From a bacterium (GTDB lineage: Bacteria > Fidelibacterota > Marinisomatia > Marinisomatales > UBA1611): a stretch of 14,093 nt of DNA. The stretch spans positions 23,987 through 38,079 of the forward strand of contig JAYPIC010000013.1 in assembly GCA_038127595.1 (NCBI GenBank), read 5' to 3'. Below, one piece after another: positions 4,629-14,093 of the stretch (position 1 is its first letter; each line of letters opens with the position of its first letter). The notes under the pieces were generated by a model, which did not search any database, had not been told where the DNA came from, and worked only from the letters and a program-made list of their open reading frames with translations. A program made the position numbers and the translations under genes.

Positions 4629-7610
4629 ATGGATCTAGATGAAATTTTACGAATTGCAAACCCAAAACAACTTGCAGCAATTAAACATCCCCTTGCACCT
4701 TTAATGATAATTGCTGGTGCAGGAACAGGAAAAACATTCACTTTAGAAAATAGAATCATTTACATGATTCAACAATATGGTGTAAAACCAGATTCTTTAC
4801 TCACCATTACCTACACGGAAAAAGCAGCTAAAGAACTGAAGTCGAGACTACATGAAAAGATTGGTCAAAAGGTTCATCCTATGTTTGTCGGGACATTTCA
4901 TTCATTTTGCTACAAATTAATGAAAGATTATCAAATCAATAACGCTGATTCTTCCTCACTGATAGACCAAAGTGAAGCTGTTCATATGATACTTGAAAAT
5001 TATGATGATTTTATGCCATTTATGTCTGAGGAATATTCAATAAACCCAAAAATATCTGTAGTAGAGAGTTTCATTCCTTTCTTTAACCGTTTAAGAGATG
5101 AACTAGTTGATATAGATAAAGTAGATCAATCTATCCTTAAAGATTTTTATAAAGATGATGCTGAATCACTTGATCAACTAAATGACCTATTAAGAATATT
5201 TCCAATCTATCAAAATCTTAAAAAAGAAAATAACCTAATAGATTATAATGATATGATCTTAGACACTTTTCATGCGCTTAAAAATGATACAAGATTACTT
5301 GAAAAAGTCCAAAGTAAATACGAGCACCTTATCATTGATGAATTTCAAGATAATAATTATGCCCTTAATGAAATTTCTAGATTAATTAGTAAAAAAAATA
5401 GGTCTATTACTGTTGTAGGAGATGATGATCAGGTAATCTATAGTTTCAGAGGAGCAAATGCTTTTAATATATCAACATTTGAAAAAACATATGAATCTCA
5501 CCCTAATTATGAAATGATAACATTAGAAACAAACTACAGGTCATCACAACCTATTTTAGATCTTGCGAACCACTCAATAAAGCACAATAAAGAAAGAAAA
5601 GTAAAGTCATTAGTATCTGCAGGAAAAAACATTGAAATAAAGCCAATTATTTTCAAGGGAGAAAAAACCGAGCAAATTGAATTTATCGCAAATGAGATAA
5701 TCAAATTAAATAAGCAGTTCTCATATGCTGATATGGCTATTCTTTGTCGCACGCATGAACAATCGCAACAAATAATCGAGTATTTAAATTTAATTGGAAT
5801 TCCCAATCGCTCTCCAAAAAGAAACCTTTTTAATATATCCTCAGTCAAAGATTTGATTTCCTGGGTGCAATTATTGGCAAAGGGACAATACTATGATATT
5901 GCACTATTCCGAATTTTAAAAAATGAATGGGGATATAAAAAAGCTCATGATTTTTTTTCAATTGAAAATGGTTTAAATAAAGATGACTTAATCAAAAAAA
6001 TCACAGAATATGGTCTTAAAAATAATATTGCATCAACGGAACGAATAACAAAAATAATAGACCATTTTGAAAACATTATGCACAAAAGATCTGCTGCTGA
6101 AGTTGTGTGGGAATTATGTGAAAAATTAGAGCTTCTTAAAAATAAGGCACGTAGGTACCTTGTTCAAGACCAAATTGATATATTAAATATTAGCTCCATC
6201 ATATCAAATGCTCAAAAATTCTCAAGTACTATCGTAGATAAAAAGAAAGATAATATTTTCAGGTTTAATAAATTCATCGAAAATGTGATGACTTCAGGTG
6301 GACTTCCTCCATTAGAGCCTGAAAAAGACCAGGACTATACTGCTGTCACAATAAATACTGTTCATGGAGTGAAAGGTGGTGAATTTGATATTGTATTTTT
6401 ACCATTTCAACGCTCTGCCAGCTTCCCTCTTAACTTTAAATCTGAAAAGAGGATAAAAAACCCTCCGGATATATTATTAAATTACAATAACTATACAGAG
6501 TTAACTGCAAAGGAACATCATTATCAAGAAGAAAGAAGACTATTTTATGTTGCTATTACTAGAGCTAAAAAATACATGTACATTCTTGCGCCAAATAAAG
6601 CGACCTCAAAATTTGTTAAAGAATTGCCAGAAGAGCTTATGACAAATATATCCGATAAAACAAAGTTAAAGGTTCATTCATCTCGTTCTGTATTGAAAGT
6701 AAAGTACTCAAATATGTTGCAAGATGCTTTATCAAAAAGTCAATATGATATTGTAAAAGAAATAGCAGAAATTCTAACTATAATTGATAAACATGAAAAT
6801 GGTGAGTCATACTCTTTGGCTAACTCTGAATTGCAGCAGCAATTAAAAAGAGATTTAAAACCTAAATTCATCCCTGAACCTCCAAAGCAAATCAGTTTAT
6901 CAGCGAGTGCTATTGAAACCTATTTATCTTGTCCTTTAAAGTATAGACTATCTAAAATTGATAGGATTCCACAAACGGCAAGTAAACCAGAATTAGTATT
7001 TGGAAATATTATACACAAGGTTTTACAGAGATTTCATAATGAATGTAAAAAGCTAGATAAAAATTCTATTTTAGAGCTACTGGAGCAAGAGTGGCAAAGT
7101 GGAGCATTTGAATACAAAGTGCGAGAAGAAAAATTTAAAGACCAAGGTTTAGAGATGCTATCTAAATATGTAGAAAACATAAAAACAAACACTCCAAATG
7201 TTTTAGCCACAGAGTTGAGTTTCACTTTCCAATTAAATGAAACAACTATTGTTGGAACAATTGATAGATTAGATAATGAATCTGGTATTGTAATAACTGA
7301 CTATAAAACAAGTAAAACATCAACCAAAGCTAAAAATAGTTTACAACTAGCTATATACTCCTTATACCTTGAACAGTCTGAAGATTTAGAACTAAAAGGC
7401 ATTCCAAAAAAATCACAACTTTATTTTTTGAGAGATCATGAAGATCCTTTAAAAGAACATTCTTTTTCAAGTGATGAATTACGCGATACAGAAGAAAAAA
7501 TACTACACGTTTCTAATGGCATAAGAAAAAAAGATTTTAAACCTATAAAGGGTAACCATTGTAATTGGTGTGATTACAAACACCTTGCCTGCCCCGTTTA
7601 TGAGGAGTGA
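4629..7610 (+). CDS. UvrD/PcrA-family SF1A helicase fused to a C-terminal PD-(D/E)XK nuclease with 4Fe-4S cysteines (AdnB/AddAB-like)
   Basis: Helicase motifs AGAGTGKT, TYTEKAA, GTFHSF, DEFQD, VGDDDQVIYSFRGA, LETNYRS, TVHGVKGGEF, EERRLFYVAITRAK. Nuclease motifs LSAS..CP, GNIIH, GTIDRLD, DYKT, QLAIY. Cys768 plus C978/C981/C988. Confidence 0.93.
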   Translation: MDLDEILRIANPKQLAAIKHPLAPLMIIAGAGTGKTFTLENRIIYMIQQYGVKPDSLLTITYTEKAAKELKSRLHEKIGQKVHPMFVGTFHSFCYKLMKDYQINNADSSSLIDQSEAVHMILENYDDFMPFMSEEYSINPKISVVESFIPFFNRLRDELVDIDKVDQSILKDFYKDDAESLDQLNDLLRIFPIYQNLKKENNLIDYNDMILDTFHALKNDTRLLEKVQSKYEHLIIDEFQDNNYALNEISRLISKKNRSITVVGDDDQVIYSFRGANAFNISTFEKTYESHPNYEMITLETNYRSSQPILDLANHSIKHNKERKVKSLVSAGKNIEIKPIIFKGEKTEQIEFIANEIIKLNKQFSYADMAILCRTHEQSQQIIEYLNLIGIPNRSPKRNLFNISSVKDLISWVQLLAKGQYYDIALFRILKNEWGYKKAHDFFSIENGLNKDDLIKKITEYGLKNNIASTERITKIIDHFENIMHKRSAAEVVWELCEKLELLKNKARRYLVQDQIDILNISSIISNAQKFSSTIVDKKKDNIFRFNKFIENVMTSGGLPPLEPEKDQDYTAVTINTVHGVKGGEFDIVFLPFQRSASFPLNFKSEKRIKNPPDILLNYNNYTELTAKEHHYQEERRLFYVAITRAKKYMYILAPNKATSKFVKELPEELMTNISDKTKLKVHSSRSVLKVKYSNMLQDALSKSQYDIVKEIAEILTIIDKHENGESYSLANSELQQQLKRDLKPKFIPEPPKQISLSASAIETYLSCPLKYRLSKIDRIPQTASKPELVFGNIIHKVLQRFHNECKKLDKNSILELLEQEWQSGAFEYKVREEKFKDQGLEMLSKYVENIKTNTPNVLATELSFTFQLNETTIVGTIDRLDNESGIVITDYKTSKTSTKAKNSLQLAIYSLYLEQSEDLELKGIPKKSQLYFLRDHEDPLKEHSFSSDELRDTEEKILHVSNGIRKKDFKPIKGNHCNWCDYKHLACPVYEE

Positions 7611-8056: not shown

Positions 8057-9140
8057 CTGTTCTAATCACCTTATCATTACTTCCTAATTGCAGTTCATTT
8101 ATTTTATCCATTGGTTTTTCAAGTTCCCTTAACCTAGGACCTCTTAATTCTTCATAATGATTTGTAAGCGCACCAATTGATTTATTCATAGCATTTATTT
8201 TTGATTTAAACTGCTCCCATTGTTTTCTAAAAACACCTACTAACTCTTGCATCTCTCCTGCTTTCTGCTCCATAGCAAAATTCGAAACAGCCTGCCTAAC
8301 TAAAGATAATATCGCATACAAAGTAATAGGCGAGCAAAGAATGATTTTTCTTTCTAATGAAAAATCAATGAGTCTGTCATCTTCTCGGTTTAAAAAAGAA
8401 TAGATGCTTTCATTTGGTATAAAAAGCAAAACATAGTCAACCGTTCCACCTTTTGGATCAATGTAAGAACGATCTGAAACTTCTTTAATCCTATTCCGAA
8501 CATCTTTAATAAAAGCTTTTTTTTCTAGCTCTTTTTCTGACTCAGATTCTGCATTAACGTAATTCTCATAATGATTGAGTGGGAATTTGACATCCATATT
8601 TATAACTTTGTCATCAGGAAGGAAAAAAGTAAAATCGGGTCTAGAACTATCTTGTTGAGTTTGCTGCTTAAAATTTATACCCTCGGTTAAACCAATGAAA
8701 TTTAAGATATCCTCAACCATCCTTTCACCCCATTGACCTCTAGCCTGGTTGCTGGATAAAATTTGTCTCAACCGCAAGGTAGTGTCCGATAAATCTCCAA
8801 CAGTTTTTCGAGATTCTTCCATTTGAGACTTCAATGCTACCGTATTTTCAGATAAGCTTTTTAATCGTTCTTTCATTTCTTTTAAGGAACTATCGATAAG
8901 TTCTTTTTTCTTATCTAATTGATCTTCGGAATTATCGAGAAGAGATGAAAATTTATTTTCAGCGAGCTCCAAAAAGCTTTTTTGATTATTTAACAATGCC
9001 TCATTGGATAAATCGCTAAAATTCTTTTTTAATTCTTCCTGATTTTGTTTAAATGAATCGAACTCTTTTTGACGTACAAACCATATGATTATTGAACCAA
9101 GTAAAAAACCAACTAAAAAAATAATAAATTCAAGAATCAT
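8046..9140 (-). CDS. rmuC: DNA recombination protein RmuC family
   Basis: N-terminal TM helix, long coiled coil, then RGQWGE, RPD, DVKFP, FIPNE and SPITL motifs and a C-terminal coiled coil. Confidence 0.92.
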   Translation of the reverse strand: MILEFIIFLVGFLLGSIIIWFVRQKEFDSFKQNQEELKKNFSDLSNEALLNNQKSFLELAENKFSSLLDNSEDQLDKKKELIDSSLKEMKERLKSLSENTVALKSQMEESRKTVGDLSDTTLRLRQILSSNQARGQWGERMVEDILNFIGLTEGINFKQQTQQDSSRPDFTFFLPDDKVINMDVKFPLNHYENYVNAESESEKELEKKAFIKDVRNRIKEVSDRSYIDPKGGTVDYVLLFIPNESIYSFLNREDDRLIDFSLERKIILCSPITLYAILSLVRQAVSNFAMEQKAGEMQELVGVFRKQWEQFKSKINAMNKSIGALTNHYEELRGPRLRELEKPMDKINELQLGSNDKVIRTDEN

Positions 9141-9147
9141 TATTTTT

Positions 9148-10470
9148 TCATAGAGTCAGCGCAAAAGAATCTGCTAATATTCCGGGGCAAGTTGTACCAC
9201 CAATTTCACGATTCCCATATGTACTAGTATTTGGAATAAATTCAGTTTTATTACCAACCTCAAGGAGATTATCACCAAAATAATTATAAAATGAATCGTC
9301 AAAACGCATTGTATTAATTGGACCGACAATCTCACTATTTTCAACCCAAAAACAAGCATACCTTGTTAAGCCAGTAATTCTACCATTCGGATTATCGCTC
9401 CAGTTAAGATAATGGATGTTTGAAAGGTACAGCCCTTTATCAATTTGTTTTAGAACATCACTTTGATCAAGCGATCCAGGCTTCATAAATGGAGACCTAA
9501 GATATTCGCCTGACTCAGCAAAGTTACTCGTTCTATTGTATTCATTGGCTGTCCTAGAACTAATTAGTGTATTTTTCAATTCACCAAAGGATATAATCTT
9601 TAGCTCTTCAGCAGAAACCTCACCATCTGAATTAAATTTTGGTACTAATCCTGATGAGAAATCCTCAGAAATTGAAAACTTCGATGATAATCTAACATTA
9701 TCGTTTCTCATTTTCCCAAATCCACTACAACCCTGTTGAATGCTTGCTTCACTGATTCCATTCCAAGAGAACATACTTAAAAAATCAGAAACTGCTGCTG
9801 GCTCAAACCATGTCTTATAATTACCAGTTTTTACCTTTACAGGAGAAAGTTCCATAAGTTCAAGTTTCTTTTTAGATTGTTTTAAATAACCCTCATATTC
9901 ATTTTGATCCCAGTCTGTACCTGCAAATGTACCTTTAACCATCTGATGGTTCGTTGCAACTAATGAGTAATCTAATGAAAAAGACTCAGTTTCAAACCAA
10001 TGCTCCTGCCCTAAAGAATTTGAATTACCTCTATACATTTTACCATTAGATAAAATTCCTACAAAATCTACTCCTTGAATAGCTGGTAAAATTGCATCAA
10101 CAGCGTCTTCAAAGTTTAAACCATTAGATTTTTTTATCTCCCTGCTTGAGCCAGAACCCTTAGGTATGATCAGGTATGGGTCTTCTAATATTTGCGTAGA
10201 TTCCAATCGCATTCTTTCAATCTCTAACCCTGCTCTCTTTGCATCAACATCATCATTTCCAGAAAGCGTAAAACTTCCAGTGCATGTTCTACCATTCGCA
10301 ATCATTTTCATATGAATATCAGCATCATTGACCAAACCAGTTTGTCTTATTTTTGCATTATTAAGTCGTATGAATTGGCTCTCTTCTCCAGTAAAAGACA
10401 ATGTTAACAGTTCATCTTTCTTTAAATAAGAGTATATAACTTTCGAGATATTTTTAAATTTATTTTCCAT
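9148..10470 (-). CDS. TldE/PmbA-like non-catalytic subunit of the TldD/E metalloprotease (start corrected to 10470, 440 aa)
   Basis: EESQFIRLNNAKIRQTG N-terminus and LYLSNIHYLNWSD..ITGLTR..FWVEN C-terminus; no HExxxH. ATG 10470 lies 1 nt after the tldD stop with a GGAGGAG SD, so the ORF-track 43-aa extension is unlikely. Confidence 0.88.
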   Translation of the reverse strand: MENKFKNISKVIYSYLKKDELLTLSFTGEESQFIRLNNAKIRQTGLVNDADIHMKMIANGRTCTGSFTLSGNDDVDAKRAGLEIERMRLESTQILEDPYLIIPKGSGSSREIKKSNGLNFEDAVDAILPAIQGVDFVGILSNGKMYRGNSNSLGQEHWFETESFSLDYSLVATNHQMVKGTFAGTDWDQNEYEGYLKQSKKKLELMELSPVKVKTGNYKTWFEPAAVSDFLSMFSWNGISEASIQQGCSGFGKMRNDNVRLSSKFSISEDFSSGLVPKFNSDGEVSAEELKIISFGELKNTLISSRTANEYNRTSNFAESGEYLRSPFMKPGSLDQSDVLKQIDKGLYLSNIHYLNWSDNPNGRITGLTRYACFWVENSEIVGPINTMRFDDSFYNYFGDNLLEVGNKTEFIPNTSTYGNREIGGTTCPGILADSFALTL

Positions 10471-10471
10471 G

Positions 10472-11914
10472 TTAAGCTCCTCCAAACACTTGAACATTTT
10501 CAAACAGGCAAAGCGGTGATGCGTGACCAACTCGAATGACTTGATTCGGCTCACCTTTACCACAGTTAGGGGTTCCATAAATACCATTAGTATCACCATT
10601 ACCGACCATTTTTAAACTATTCCAAAATGGATTACTTATACCTCTGTAATTTGGATTTTTTATCGTCTTCGTAAGTTTACCATTCTCAATTAATTTACCA
10701 TACTCACATCCGAATTGAAATTTATTCCTATAGTCATCTATACTCCATGACCGATTGCTTTCTACATATATGCCTTTTTCAACACTACCGATAATATCGT
10801 CAAAAGATGAATCTCCGGGTTCTAAATTTATATTTGCCATGCGGTCAATTGGTGCTCGATTCCATGAGCTTGCTCTAAAATTAGCCACGCCATCTATTCC
10901 GGACCTAACCTGACTTTCTTTACCTCCTAGTCCCCTTACTAAGATGCCCTCTTTAATAAGATACTCTCTTTCAGCTTTAAGACCGCCATCATCATATGCG
11001 TATGAGGCAAACTCAGAAGACACAGTAGGATCGAATGTGACATTCATTAATTTTGATCCATATTGTAACTTGCCAAAATCTTCAAGTTTCACAAAACTCC
11101 AACCAGCATAATTTCTTTCATCACCTAAAATTCTATCTACCTCCAAAGCATGCCCAATACTCTCATGTATTTGAAGCATCATTTGATCAGGAGCGATGAC
11201 AATATCCATCTCACCAGTAGGCGTTTCATCAGCATCGAGCAATTCTAATGCTTGCTCGCCAATCCTATTAGCCTGAGCTAAAATTTCCATCTGATCTAAA
11301 AATTCCATTCCAGCTTGTCTGCATGTCCCACGCATTCCTCCAAATGTTCTCGTTTGCTGATTTTGCCCATCCACTGCTGTTGCAGATAAGTCAAATTCTA
11401 GCATTAAAAAATCTTGCTCAACATTACTACCATTTGAACTTACATAATGAAAATTGGTTTGAATTACATTAGCTAATGAGCTTGCACTAACGATCTTATC
11501 TGAAACTTTTAAATTTTTATATGCATCAAGAAGTAACATGTTTAATTCTTTTGCACTGATACTTCTTAGATCTTTTTCAAATGGAGAAGAATATTTACCA
11601 ATGTTTTTAGGCCGTACTTCATCTGTAAAATGATGTAGTGCATATTTAGAGGCTGCTTTTGCTTGATCATATGCTTTTTTTGCTGCTAATTCTATACCAC
11701 TTTTACTTAAATCAGGAGTTCCAAAATATCCAAATTGTCCATTTACTAAAACTTCAACCATTGCTCCGTGGGTTGAATAGTGACCATTTGATACTGGCAC
11801 TCCATCGCGGATCATACGAGGTGTGTTAGACTCGTATACTTCTCTAAGGCCTACCCAATCAGCAGGTACTGTTACCGCATCTAATAATGATTTAATACTA
11901 ATTTCATTTCTCAT
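10472..11914 (-). CDS. tldD: TldD-family zinc/iron metalloprotease subunit
   Basis: HESIGH (HExxGH) metal-binding motif, YDDGG, PIDRMANINL and the C-terminal CGKGEP Cys ligand; AAAGGA SD at 11926-11921. Confidence 0.93.
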   Translation of the reverse strand: MRNEISIKSLLDAVTVPADWVGLREVYESNTPRMIRDGVPVSNGHYSTHGAMVEVLVNGQFGYFGTPDLSKSGIELAAKKAYDQAKAASKYALHHFTDEVRPKNIGKYSSPFEKDLRSISAKELNMLLLDAYKNLKVSDKIVSASSLANVIQTNFHYVSSNGSNVEQDFLMLEFDLSATAVDGQNQQTRTFGGMRGTCRQAGMEFLDQMEILAQANRIGEQALELLDADETPTGEMDIVIAPDQMMLQIHESIGHALEVDRILGDERNYAGWSFVKLEDFGKLQYGSKLMNVTFDPTVSSEFASYAYDDGGLKAEREYLIKEGILVRGLGGKESQVRSGIDGVANFRASSWNRAPIDRMANINLEPGDSSFDDIIGSVEKGIYVESNRSWSIDDYRNKFQFGCEYGKLIENGKLTKTIKNPNYRGISNPFWNSLKMVGNGDTNGIYGTPNCGKGEPNQVIRVGHASPLCLFENVQVFGGA

Positions 11915-11925
11915 TGTTAATCCTT

Positions 11926-13161
11926 TTATAATTTAATCTTATCAAATTTTTCAGGGTTTTTTTTGAGAGCGTTTGAAACCTTTTCAAATGCATCAACCAC
12001 ATCTTTAAGGTCATCGCTCGAACCTAATAAATGATTTTGTCTTAACCATACGGCTTGCTCTTCAGCAATGATTTCAGTTCCAGAATGAAACAAGTCACCA
12101 TAATTTCTTCCTTCTAACCAAGGATATTCTTTCGGGTTAATCGAAAATAGGGGTTCTTTGTAAAGTGGAGACCATCCCTTGTAAGTAAACACACCTTCTG
12201 CCTGCATTGCTTTAAAAAATAGCTCTCTATTTATATTATTAAATTCTTCTTTTAAGTATCTTACCATGTATAAATGATTTGAAGATCTAGAACCTGGAAT
12301 TAAGTCCATTGGAATAAAACCATCAATAGCTCCTATGTGACTATCTAAATATTCTCTATTTTTCTCACGTAAAATTAAATCATTTTCTACTGATTTTATT
12401 TGAGGAATTAAAATAGCAGCATTTAATGCGCTCATCCTCATGTTACTTCCCAACCTAAAATGCTCATACCACTTGCCATTTCTAACCCGCCCACAATTAT
12501 GATAAGAAAAACAAGCATCTATGAAGGATTCATCGTTGCTTACAATAGCTCCACCTTCACCAGAACTCATATTTTTTGAAGTTTGAAAACTGAAAATTCC
12601 ACCAAGTCCAATTGCACCGACTTTCCTATTATCTACACTAGAGCCATGACCTTGGGCAGCATCTTCTATAATAGGAATGTTATATTTTTTTGATATATCT
12701 AAAAAAGCTTTCATATTAGCAGGAGCACCTGCAGTGTGAACAGGAATGATAGCTTTTGTCTTTTTTGTAATTAATTTTTCAACAGAAGTTGGGTCAAGAT
12801 TAGCAGTCTTTTTGTCTATATCAGCAAAAACAGGTACAGCATTCGCTAAAACAACTGCAGTTGCAGTTGCTATGAAGGTATAAGAAGGTAAAATTACCTC
12901 ATCGCCTGCTTCGATACCCGCAGCTTTCAAACATATCCATATTGCTGAGGTACCTGAGTGAATTGAAAGACAATACTTGGCATCTTGCATATTTGCAAAT
13001 TGTTCATTAAAAAGGGTTATTGTTTTACTACCAACACCCCAATCTTCATTTTCATAAGTGTGAATAAGACTTTGTTTGATTTCCTCGGTTAGCCGCGGCC
13101 AAACTGGGAATGGTTTTTTTCGTACTGGCTCACCACCAAAAATTGCTAAATCTGTTGACAA
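11926..13161 (-). CDS. DegT/DnrJ/EryC1/StrS-family PLP aminotransferase
   Basis: SGTSA, PSYTFIAT, PVFADID, AIIPVH, IEDAAQGHG, FSFQTSKNMSSGEGG (PLP lysine); N-terminal LAIFGGEPVRKKPFPVWP extension; TTG start. Confidence 0.93.
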   Translation of the reverse strand: MSTDLAIFGGEPVRKKPFPVWPRLTEEIKQSLIHTYENEDWGVGSKTITLFNEQFANMQDAKYCLSIHSGTSAIWICLKAAGIEAGDEVILPSYTFIATATAVVLANAVPVFADIDKKTANLDPTSVEKLITKKTKAIIPVHTAGAPANMKAFLDISKKYNIPIIEDAAQGHGSSVDNRKVGAIGLGGIFSFQTSKNMSSGEGGAIVSNDESFIDACFSYHNCGRVRNGKWYEHFRLGSNMRMSALNAAILIPQIKSVENDLILREKNREYLDSHIGAIDGFIPMDLIPGSRSSNHLYMVRYLKEEFNNINRELFFKAMQAEGVFTYKGWSPLYKEPLFSINPKEYPWLEGRNYGDLFHSGTEIIAEEQAVWLRQNHLLGSSDDLKDVVDAFEKVSNALKKNPEKFDKIKL

Positions 13162-13264
13162 CTAAGACTTCTCTTTCAAAATAATGTAAGCAAATTTACT
13201 AACTAGCTTATAGGTCTACAATGATATCAGTATGTAAAAAAGGAATTAAAAAAAATATTTAGTA

Positions 13265-13318
13265 TGTAAATATGACAGCTTTAAAACAATAATAAAATTT
13301 ATAAATGTCATATTGGCA
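13265..13318. promoter_or_regulatory. Two imperfect palindromes TGTCA-N3-TGACA, putative regulator binding sites
   Basis: TGTAA-ATA-TGACA (13265-13277) and TGTCA-TAT-TGGCA (13306-13318), each one mismatch from the perfect palindrome, starts 41 bp apart. Confidence 0.5.
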
Positions 13319-13351
13319 GACTATATGAATTATATGCTACAAAAATTTAAA

Positions 13352-13367
13352 TGGCACACAAATTGGT
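13352..13367 (+). promoter_or_regulatory. Sigma54-like -24/-12 promoter of hsp20
   Basis: TGGCAC-ACAAA-TTGGT versus consensus TGGCAC-N5-TTGCW. Spacing is exact, with one deviation at the -12 C. Confidence 0.5.
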
Positions 13368-13405
13368 AAAGTAAGCAAATCTAAATAACAAAAAAGGAGT
13401 AAAAA

Positions 13406-13843
13406 ATGAACTTAATTAATTGGAAACCAAAAACAGTTTCTTCATATCGCACTTTTCCAAATATTTTTGAAAGAATGGTAGATGATAACTTTTTCTTTGA
13501 TTATGATAATAATGATTTTAGACCATCAGTTGATATAAATGAAAGTAATGACGCTTTCATGATATCAGCGGACTTACCAGGTATAAAAAAATCTGATATT
13601 GAAGTAAAAGTAGAAGAAAATACTCTTATCCTTAGCGCTAGTAGACATTTAGATAAGTCAGATAATAATGAAAAATTCCATTACAACGAGCGCAGGTTTG
13701 GTACCTTTAGCAGGTCATTTAAATTGCCAAAAGCTGTTAAGGAAGAAAAGATAACTGCTAAACTTGACAATGGTGTTTTATCTGTAGTCATTCCAAAAGC
13801 TGAAGATGCAATTAAGAGCAATAGGGTAATTGCTGTAAAATAG
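13406..13843 (+). CDS. Hsp20/alpha-crystallin small heat shock protein
   Basis: PSVDINE, ADLPG, ERRFGTFSRSFKLP, AKLDNGVLSVVIPK and a C-terminal I-x-V; AAGGAG SD at 13394-13399. Confidence 0.96.
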   Translation: MNLINWKPKTVSSYRTFPNIFERMVDDNFFFDYDNNDFRPSVDINESNDAFMISADLPGIKKSDIEVKVEENTLILSASRHLDKSDNNEKFHYNERRFGTFSRSFKLPKAVKEEKITAKLDNGVLSVVIPKAEDAIKSNRVIAVK

Positions 13844-13855
13844 AAGCGAGTAAGT

Positions 13856-13890
13856 ATAATAGAGGGAAGAGTATCTTTTCCCTCTATTAT
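13856..13890. terminator. Probable bidirectional terminator hairpin between convergent genes
   Basis: ATAATAGAGGGAAGAG-TAT-CTTTTCCCTCTATTAT: 16-bp stem (one G-U on the plus strand), starting 12 nt after the hsp20 stop and overlapping the stop of the opposite-strand gene. No classic U-run. Confidence 0.75.
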
Positions 13891-14093
13891 CTAGTATTAT
13901 TATAAAACTCTATTTTTAATTTTTTTGCAGCGGCATTTATTTTGGATATCAAATTATTAGGACCTGAATAAAAAATTCTATATTTATCAGCTGATTTACC
14001 TTTTAATATATTTTTAAACTTATCATACCATATTGGAGAACCAATGTGATTGTGTTTTCCTAAGCCATCTAATAGGTCAATATCGTACTCGTT
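13887..14093 (-). CDS. 3' end of a NOX/ferric-reductase-like protein (NAD(P)H-binding domain C-terminus; truncated by window edge)
   Basis: Frame open from 14093 to TAA at 13889-13887: NEYDIDLLDGLGKHNHIGSPIWYDKFKNILKGKSADKYRIFYSGPNNLISKINAAAKKLKIEFYNNTR*. It follows the NOX pattern DxxTGL-x6-GRPxW-x3-F...VFxCGPxxL. Not in the ORF track. Confidence 0.68.
   Translation of the reverse strand, partial: NEYDIDLLDGLGKHNHIGSPIWYDKFKNILKGKSADKYRIFYSGPNNLISKINAAAKKLKIEFYNNTR

Follow-up and report, generated by a model that had tools for sequence, protein, structure and literature searches.

What kind of protein is encoded by a bacterial gene that ends like an NADPH oxidase (NOX), carries altered catalytic motifs, and is broken by the end of a contig? 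The gene in question lies at the edge of a 14,093-nucleotide stretch of DNA (referred to here as the window) from a marine bacterium of the Fidelibacterota (assembly GCA_038127595.1, here genome G000; contig JAYPIC010000013.1, here C13), and the end of the window is also the end of the contig. A first-pass annotation had described a 68-residue open frame at this edge as the C terminus of a eukaryote-type NOX, possibly a superoxide source or else a repurposed or inactive domain. Our comparison of sequences indicates that the gene likely encodes a conserved NOX5 variant that is not an oxidase and has undergone a change of job; the evidence thus favors the second of the two earlier proposals.

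The minus-strand frame reads as annotated: it is open at the window edge, and the DLLDGL, GSPIW, and FYSGP segments and the YNNTR end are all present (Table 1). By composition, the chance of an edge frame this long is about 3% per such window, and frame length alone is therefore a poor proof of a gene. The 68-codon fragment on its own had no Pfam match, and phmmer aligned it with dehydrogenase chains of NOX5 from Cylindrospermum stagnale (csNOX5) at an E value of 2e-4. Eighteen of 58 candidate longer proteins matched the fragment at 66 to 90% identity, all 18 containing PF08030, and among 36 genomes of the same bacterial family, 24 contained a match to the fragment. The stem-loop at the stop codon (-17.7 kcal/mol; z, -4.9) agrees with a genuine gene end, and a consensus terminator scan made no call at this stem-loop. 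The matter is decided by homology, on which the frame is a real gene end.

The upstream 452 codons were located in contig C63 of the same genome (positions 8714 to 10069, plus strand), where the frame is open at the contig end. We consider the two pieces to be one gene because (i) the orthologue in genome G003, P0020, is a single frame of 492 amino acids (aa), with which the C63 part shares 94% and the window part 88% identity, (ii) the gene order to the left of the C63 part and to the right of the window part jointly matches that of G003 and other relatives, and (iii) contigs of the public runs X16 and X20 carry the window's letter at one of the three overlap mismatches, the X20 contig spanning the last 257 nucleotides of C63 and 99 nucleotides further (as judged by extent). 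P0020 served as the reference for all full-length analyses.

The full-length protein is built of four EF-hands, a leftover of transmembrane helix 6 (TM6), and a NOX-type dehydrogenase for flavin adenine dinucleotide (FAD) and NADPH. PF08022 and PF08030 were both above the cut-off, and NOX5 chains ranked first by sequence and by fold, which bears out the annotation of a NOX-like dehydrogenase C terminus in a noncyanobacterial bacterium. For comparison, we compiled 79 homologues of this build, referred to here as the membrane-less family (57 database proteins and 22 complete genome proteins, forming 43 clusters at 80%), and 55 intact bacterial NOX5 proteins (80 loci gave 69 motif-bearing frames, of which 55 were 640 to 780 aa long, forming 36 clusters); the intact frames were picked by the motif W[FYH]PF, and their counts for its Pro and Phe are thus partly a matter of selection. 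EF1 is noncanonical, and EF2 to EF4 are canonical across the 79 rows (loop Asp1, Glu12, and Asp/Asn3, 100% each; Asp9, 97 to 100%). Human NOX5 (PDB 8U85-8U87, 8U7Y), the top sequence match overall (E value, 5.5e-57), has the same set of four EF-hands with the same noncanonical EF1, and its TM6 segment aligns. The predicted structure matches the calcium-free state of human NOX5 over 402 residues.

About 170 residues, comprising preTM1 and TM1 to TM5, are gone relative to NOX. At most one hydrophobic window was detected, corresponding to the TM6 leftover (peak, 0.84 to 1.69; the same scan undercalls the helices of intact NOX5 too), and a profile of NOX5 TM1 to TM5 found no match in the membrane-less proteins. 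The four heme His residues, present in 55/55 intact bacterial NOX5 proteins, lie inside the deleted part or are replaced, and the helices of the oxygen-reducing center (NOX2 R54, H119, and outer heme; PMC9711523) fall in the deleted part. These losses set the family apart from both human NOX5 and csNOX5 (PDB 5O0X, 8CAP), as do the altered motifs (HPFT, GIGVTP, CGP, and ExF in csNOX5) and a new conserved N-terminal segment; an N-terminal GPF motif is newly fixed, and the TM6 leftover carries an invariant Asn and an invariant Arg. In G000 (95.8% complete), no Ferric_reduct match exceeded the cut-off (best E value, 0.042), and the NOX5 TM1 to TM5 profile gave no acceptable match (best E value, 0.031). 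Ferric_reduct passed the cut-off in 3 of 61 genomes, each time in an intact NOX5 gene, and only one of the three, G032, has a membrane-less gene too; a heme membrane protein, again an intact NOX5, was found in 1 of the 30 genomes among these 61 that have the membrane-less gene. NOX-type superoxide production is unlikely, since no separate heme domain was found in a genome that is ~96% complete. The earlier proposal of a superoxide source is thus not supported: of the domains anticipated beyond position 14093, FAD_binding_8, NAD_binding_6, and EF-hands are present, but the protein lacks the six-helix heme domain with its four His residues, and none was detected in other parts of the genome.

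The altered catalytic motifs are real across the family. The FAD motif H[PSA]F[TS][LIMV], used as a NOX filter in PMC5676040, occurs in 1/79 family rows versus 54/55 intact proteins, G000 reading FPFNL, and the published NOX NADPH motif occurs in 0/79 versus 55/55, G000 reading GAGIAK. The (V/I/L)xGP(F/Y)G motif, also regarded as a NOX motif (PMC9421330), is kept in 77/79 rows, G000 among them. At sites known from NOX2, the family keeps His at H338 in 6% of rows (mostly Tyr), Thr at T341 in 8% (mostly Asn), Arg at R356 in 4% (mostly Lys), the nicotinamide-site Pro at P415 in 0% (mostly Lys/Arg), Glu at E568 in 5% (various residues), and Phe at F570 in 56% (otherwise mostly nothing). In NOX2 itself, the substitutions H338Y and T341K compromise the binding of FAD and E568K its uptake, and diaphorase activity is blocked in P415H/L and C537R (PMC4550764, PMC11161758). 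The change of GRP to GSP noted earlier is genuine, but it carries the least weight among the three motif arguments: the Arg, which corresponds to R1495 of DUOX1, where it binds the 2'-phosphate of NADPH (PMC7794343), is found in just 60% of intact bacterial NOX5 proteins. The Arg residues by which DUOX1 selects NADPH (PMC7794343) and three adenosine-side contacts of SpNOX (PMC11564096) are lost and variable in the family. The terminal aromatic residue disappeared a single time, in the clade to which the window gene belongs, and the first Gly of the nucleotide loop has become Asp, Glu, or Ser in 12 rows, which takes six changes on a tree made with those columns left out.

The more constrained part is now the EF-hands and no longer the NADPH lobe. 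Only 19 of the 54 dehydrogenase columns fixed in intact NOX5 survive, nearly all of them structural, and 25 columns are newly fixed in the membrane-less family. The calcium ligands of EF2 to EF4 vary less than those of intact NOX5 (0.24 versus 1.06 bits), and the rate of the NADPH lobe relative to the EF-hand module is 1.81 in the family versus 0.74 in intact NOX5. Taken together, the family descends from NOX5 yet falls outside the NOX proteins in its helices, hemes, oxygen site, and both cofactor motifs.

The gene is confined to one bacterial family in the genomes searched. A search with P0020 matched 31 of 36 genomes of its own family, or 29 when two with intact NOX5 only are set aside, and none of 24 genomes from other families of the order. 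A profile search of 400 genomes of the phylum matched 36 of 43 family genomes, or 34 without the two intact-only ones, several of these 34 matches being contig-edge pieces and one only N terminal. Among the 357 other phylum genomes sampled, the membrane-less form was found in none, the one match being split within a 664-aa frame that is an intact NOX5. Database labels give the group as Marinimicrobia/Fidelibacterota, and among the best 150 of 1.84 billion representatives, only two full-length proteins are of this build. In genus g2, the gene was found in 0/4 genomes, with an empty site in three. At these empty sites (L157 to L159, in G009, G035, and G267), a synthase gene directly faces FabG-like, FMN-reductase-like, and HSP20 genes, the FabG-like gene of G267 being reduced to a stub.

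In a tree of EF-hand and dehydrogenase columns (mixture model; 41 rows, 13 of 54 having been dropped for long branches or redundancy), the membrane-less family forms one clade (support, 100/100; stem, 0.91) within the bacterial NOX5 set (85/84). Its sister in the best tree is the intact NOX5 of the same bacterial family, although weakly (86/33; a quick search gave 90). A grouping with animal-type NOX5 was not rejected (approximately unbiased [AU] test, P = 0.09), only two of the seven animal-type rows being named and the others, like the outgroup, being labeled by tree position, and a fast dehydrogenase-only tree placed the family at the base of all NOX5. A duplication in the ancestor of the bacterial family would be the simplest history, G032 carrying both the intact and the membrane-less form. 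The label eukaryote-type holds for the style of the motifs only: NOX5 with such motifs occurs widely among bacteria, and the membrane-less family falls within this bacterial set in the best tree.

The gene is under purifying selection and is not decaying. The ratio of nonsynonymous to synonymous substitution rates (dN/dS) was 0.11 to 0.16 in five pairs with dS of 0.25 to 0.71, and intact NOX5 had a median of 0.136 (129 pairs); more distant pairs were near saturation. The G000/G003 pair gave 0.31 at a dS of 0.09; its FAD lobe, where changes are few (dS, 0.03), gave 1.57. The gene sequence is present in six RNA libraries; two of these leave the intergenic stretch 13200-13379 uncovered, and two DNA runs cover most of it, a pattern that is a weak hint of transcription. 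In RNA run X16, the summed depth of HSP20 contigs is several hundred versus ~6 for the NOX5-derived gene, a hint at most because contig depth cannot rank genes.

We give about an even chance to the reading that the NOX5 derivative is a calcium switch on a pseudo-dehydrogenase body, probably without NADPH-to-FAD turnover. To the established architecture, single origin, purifying selection, loss of cofactor motifs, and tightened calcium ligands, this reading adds calcium binding, a module shift, and loss of turnover, which we infer. Ca2+ would bind EF2 to EF4, and the EF-hand module would then move against the dehydrogenase body, as the calcium-driven module does in NOX5 (PMC11088703). The shift would expose or reshape a surface of newly fixed residues (the GPF motif, the Asn and Arg of the TM6 leftover, and the basic residue at the nicotinamide-site Pro), and this surface would bind a partner protein, the face of a membrane, or a small ligand, which might be a flavin that is bound but not turned over; the output would be a binding surface, not electrons. 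A number of observations weigh against it. No partner protein was found. The structural model is of middling quality (pLDDT, 75; pTM, 0.66; ~60 over the TM6 leftover). The disease changes of NOX2 are mostly to residues other than those seen here, only His to Tyr being identical. The flavin-ring Pro and Phe (the SpNOX sandwich) are kept at 99 to 100%, the FAD-contact Lys at 90% (SpNOX likewise has Lys there), and GPYG in all but two rows, and the replacements are themselves fixed (Tyr, 85%; Asn, 86%; Lys/Arg, 100%; Ser, 82%) rather than free, so the cleft is still under selection. A new Asp together with a basic residue might fit NADH, NADH-specific relatives being the comparison for such a pair. 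On its own, the SpNOX dehydrogenase works as a flavin reductase (about 5 per second) and holds the ring largely by backbone contacts, and F397S, a change of the C-terminal Phe, makes it more active (PMC11031084); C370A in SpNOX only raises the Michaelis constant (PMC11564096). Active Escherichia coli Fre has Tyr at the motif Pro and Ala at the Cys (the Ala read by eye, as the alignment drifted).

Most of these points would suit a soluble flavin reductase or diaphorase that is gated by calcium and has probably changed its donor from NADPH to NADH, and in which Ca2+ relieves inhibition by the EF-hands and reduced flavin passes to cytosolic acceptors; we regard this as possible, though less probable than the switch. 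Its models, Fre and the isolated SpNOX dehydrogenase, are likewise soluble FNR folds without a membrane domain, lacking the EF-hands; the family shares with Fre the two-lobed fold, the flavin-ring Pro and an aromatic residue, and the departure from the Pro and Cys motifs. However, RPFS and the Arg that follows the second Rossmann strand, both kept by Fre, are missing from the membrane-less family: both polar HPFT residues are gone in 78/79 rows, a Ser/Thr hydroxyl together with His/Arg in the flavin motif occurring in 1/79 (SpNOX uses H233 and S236). The independent changes of the loop Gly to acidic residues or Ser, the rapid evolution of the NADPH lobe (1.8 times the rate of the EF-hand module), and the deletion of the membrane domain that gives FAD and NADPH contacts in DUOX1 and NOX2 also argue against a reductase, and the window gene's own lineage has neither the new Asp nor the terminal aromatic residue. 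The FMN-reductase-like and FabG-like neighbors lend it no weight, as they stand in the same place in genomes without the gene. A cleft rebuilt for other chemistry or for a small ligand such as an anionic metabolite or nucleotide, which would make the protein a calcium-plus-metabolite sensor or a nonredox enzyme, is unlikely; it would account for the flavin-site replacements being fixed to new residues (Tyr, Asn, Lys, Lys/Arg, and Ser) and for a stem branch of 1.08 in the dehydrogenase versus 0.45 in the EF-hand module, as after an adaptive burst, but no neighbor or fold match indicates a substrate, and the gene order persists where the gene is missing. Still less probable, indeed very improbable, is one half of a split oxidase that hands electrons to a separately encoded heme membrane protein to make superoxide. 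E. coli has such a pair in Fre and MsrQ (PMC11031084), and ~4% of the genome is missing; against this stand the negative Ferric_reduct and TM1 to TM5 searches of G000, the restriction of Ferric_reduct to intact NOX5 genes in the 61 genomes, and the TM6, which is still part of the soluble half and has acquired an Asn and a basic residue. A functionless, decaying NOX5 remnant is already largely refuted and has next to no probability: the lost catalytic motifs, the G000/G003 ratios, and the absence from the genus g2 genomes are what it could explain, whereas stop-free frames of 487 to 499 aa persist across proteins down to ~38% identity, dN/dS resembles that of intact NOX5, the chromosomal position is fixed, and the sequence appears in RNA libraries.

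As a calcium switch, the NOX5 derivative would resemble four-EF-hand sensors of the calcineurin B and CBL type, differing in being bacterial and in having the sensor fused to a dehydrogenase-fold body of its own. It is also the reverse of the NOX5 epsilon form, a truncation in which the EF-hands are lost and the membrane core remains (PMC11088703). We found no description of a membrane-less EF-hand NOX5 in the open-access literature, most subscription journals being outside the scope of this search. A plant cluster in the ESM Atlas (59 members, 488 aa) lists NADPH_Ox, FAD_binding_8, and NAD_binding_6 as its top three families, without Ferric_reduct, and is possibly a convergent membrane-less RBOH, a set of faulty gene models, or an effect of a three-family display limit. 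P0050 (449 aa) combines the family's TM6 leftover and dehydrogenase with an unrelated N terminus in place of the EF-hands; it is a single sequence and maybe a chimeric assembly.

The intact NOX5 proteins of the same bacterial family (P0082 and P0083; L054, L056, and L057) share 43% identity with the membrane-less form in the EF-hand module and 27 to 30% in the dehydrogenase, keep six helices, four heme His residues, and all dehydrogenase motifs, and are encoded at a different locus. There (L054:457-4989, L056:462-4992, and L057:462-4992), the NOX5 gene directly follows genes for a four-CxxCH and a ten-CxxCH cytochrome on the same strand. These three proteins lack the oxygen-site residues (Glu/Glu/Met at the R54 site and Tyr/Tyr/Phe at the H119 site), and judging from their sequences they may pass electrons from NADPH to multiheme cytochromes, not to O2. 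A neighbor with at least four CxxCH within 3 kb was found for 14/20 intact NOX5 proteins without the H119-site His versus 0/35 with it, these cases falling in about two lineages and so not being independent, and some flanks being short. A mostly myxobacterial clade of intact NOX5 (L099, L102, L106, L107, L110, L112, L115, L116, L120, L122, and L129) lacks this His and has a neighbor with five to eight CxxCH. In G000, a 996-aa frame on contig C14 with eight CxxCH is the sole such multiheme frame in a six-frame scan. EF-hand NOX5 genes were found in Myxococcota, Spirochaetes, Pseudomonadota, Planctomycetota, and Fidelibacterota (L054 to L133; 80 loci kept of 101), far wider than the few cyanobacterial cases treated in PMC3591440 and PMC9421330, and several frames of 870 to 1460 aa suggest extra domains.

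The features of the window that bear on the gene are listed in Table 1. The gene order is common to the whole block and holds also in genomes without the NOX5-derived gene, and the HSP20 gene gave no sign of belonging to the NOX5-derived system, as far as examined. The TldD/TldE-like pair and the following RmuC gene (window 9148-11914) are kept beside the locus in 18/20 relatives or as far as the contig reaches. Elsewhere in the window (4629-7610), a 993-aa UvrD/PcrA-like helicase has, as read from its sequence, a nuclease-like C-terminal tail with four cysteines, which we take to resemble that of AdnA/AddA-type repair enzymes. On C63, a 317-aa cystathionine beta-synthase (L017:7668-8621; over the TIGR01137 cut-off, 320/457 model positions) lacks the C-terminal regulatory part and is divergent from the NOX5-derived gene in 19/20 relatives, and a GH1 beta-glucosidase is fused to a C-terminal ResA/TlpA-like thioredoxin fold (L017:5809-7671), at whose position several relatives have just a cluster protein of 165 to 175 aa.

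Table 1. Features at and near the window edge, in window coordinates
Feature	Position	Strand	Remarks
DegT-family aminotransferase gene	11926..13161	-	Synteny marker; followed by TldD, TldE-like, and RmuC genes
HSP20 gene, convergent neighbor	13406..13843	+	Synteny marker; same side in 19/20 relative loci
Stem-loop, likely a shared terminator	13853..13892		Between the convergent HSP20 and NOX5-derived genes; overlaps the stop codon of the latter
3' end of NOX5-derived gene	13887..14093	-	68 codons and TAA; C-terminal part of the NADPH-binding lobe
YNNTR end replacing ExF	13890..13904	-	Terminal aromatic residue kept in 44/79
SGP, counterpart of CGP (NOX2 C537)	13959..13967	-	Family Ser 82%, Cys 11%; intact NOX5 Cys 98%
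GSPIW, counterpart of GRPxW	14028..14042	-	G and P invariant; Arg present in 0/79
DLLDGL, counterpart of NOX DLITGL	14061..14078	-	Family D 32%, T 4%, G 24%, L 43%; intact NOX5 96-98%
Overlap with the end of contig C63	14010..14093	-	84 nucleotides, 3 mismatches

It is the heme membrane domain that defines NOX proteins, and surveys of the family select for it together with the FAD and NADPH motifs (PMC5676040, PMC9421330); for this reason the membrane-less family cannot appear in those published. New here are the motif loss in 79 homologues, the changes at NOX2 disease sites, and the flip of constraint to the EF-hands. Annotation by FAD_binding_8 and NAD_binding_6 would miscount these genomes as superoxide producers. 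The family is a natural experiment on how calcium and the EF-hand module act on the NOX5 dehydrogenase, and a soluble, stable EF-hand-plus-dehydrogenase protein without membrane or heme should suit expression and structure determination in both states. An active protein would be a flavin reductase gated by calcium and able to work without motifs regarded as essential. A catalytically dead one would mean that a streamlined (~2 Mb) marine bacterium has kept a eukaryote-style calcium switch, offering a handle on calcium signaling in an uncultured group. With a confidence just short of even, we tentatively see here a NOX pseudoenzyme, in which an abundant marine bacterial family made a soluble calcineurin-B-like switch of NOX5 by removing the heme membrane core and disabling the dehydrogenase, while the intact sister copy, in an operon with decaheme cytochromes, dropped the oxygen site; if this is true, bacterial NOX5 would have left superoxide production by two routes within one family.
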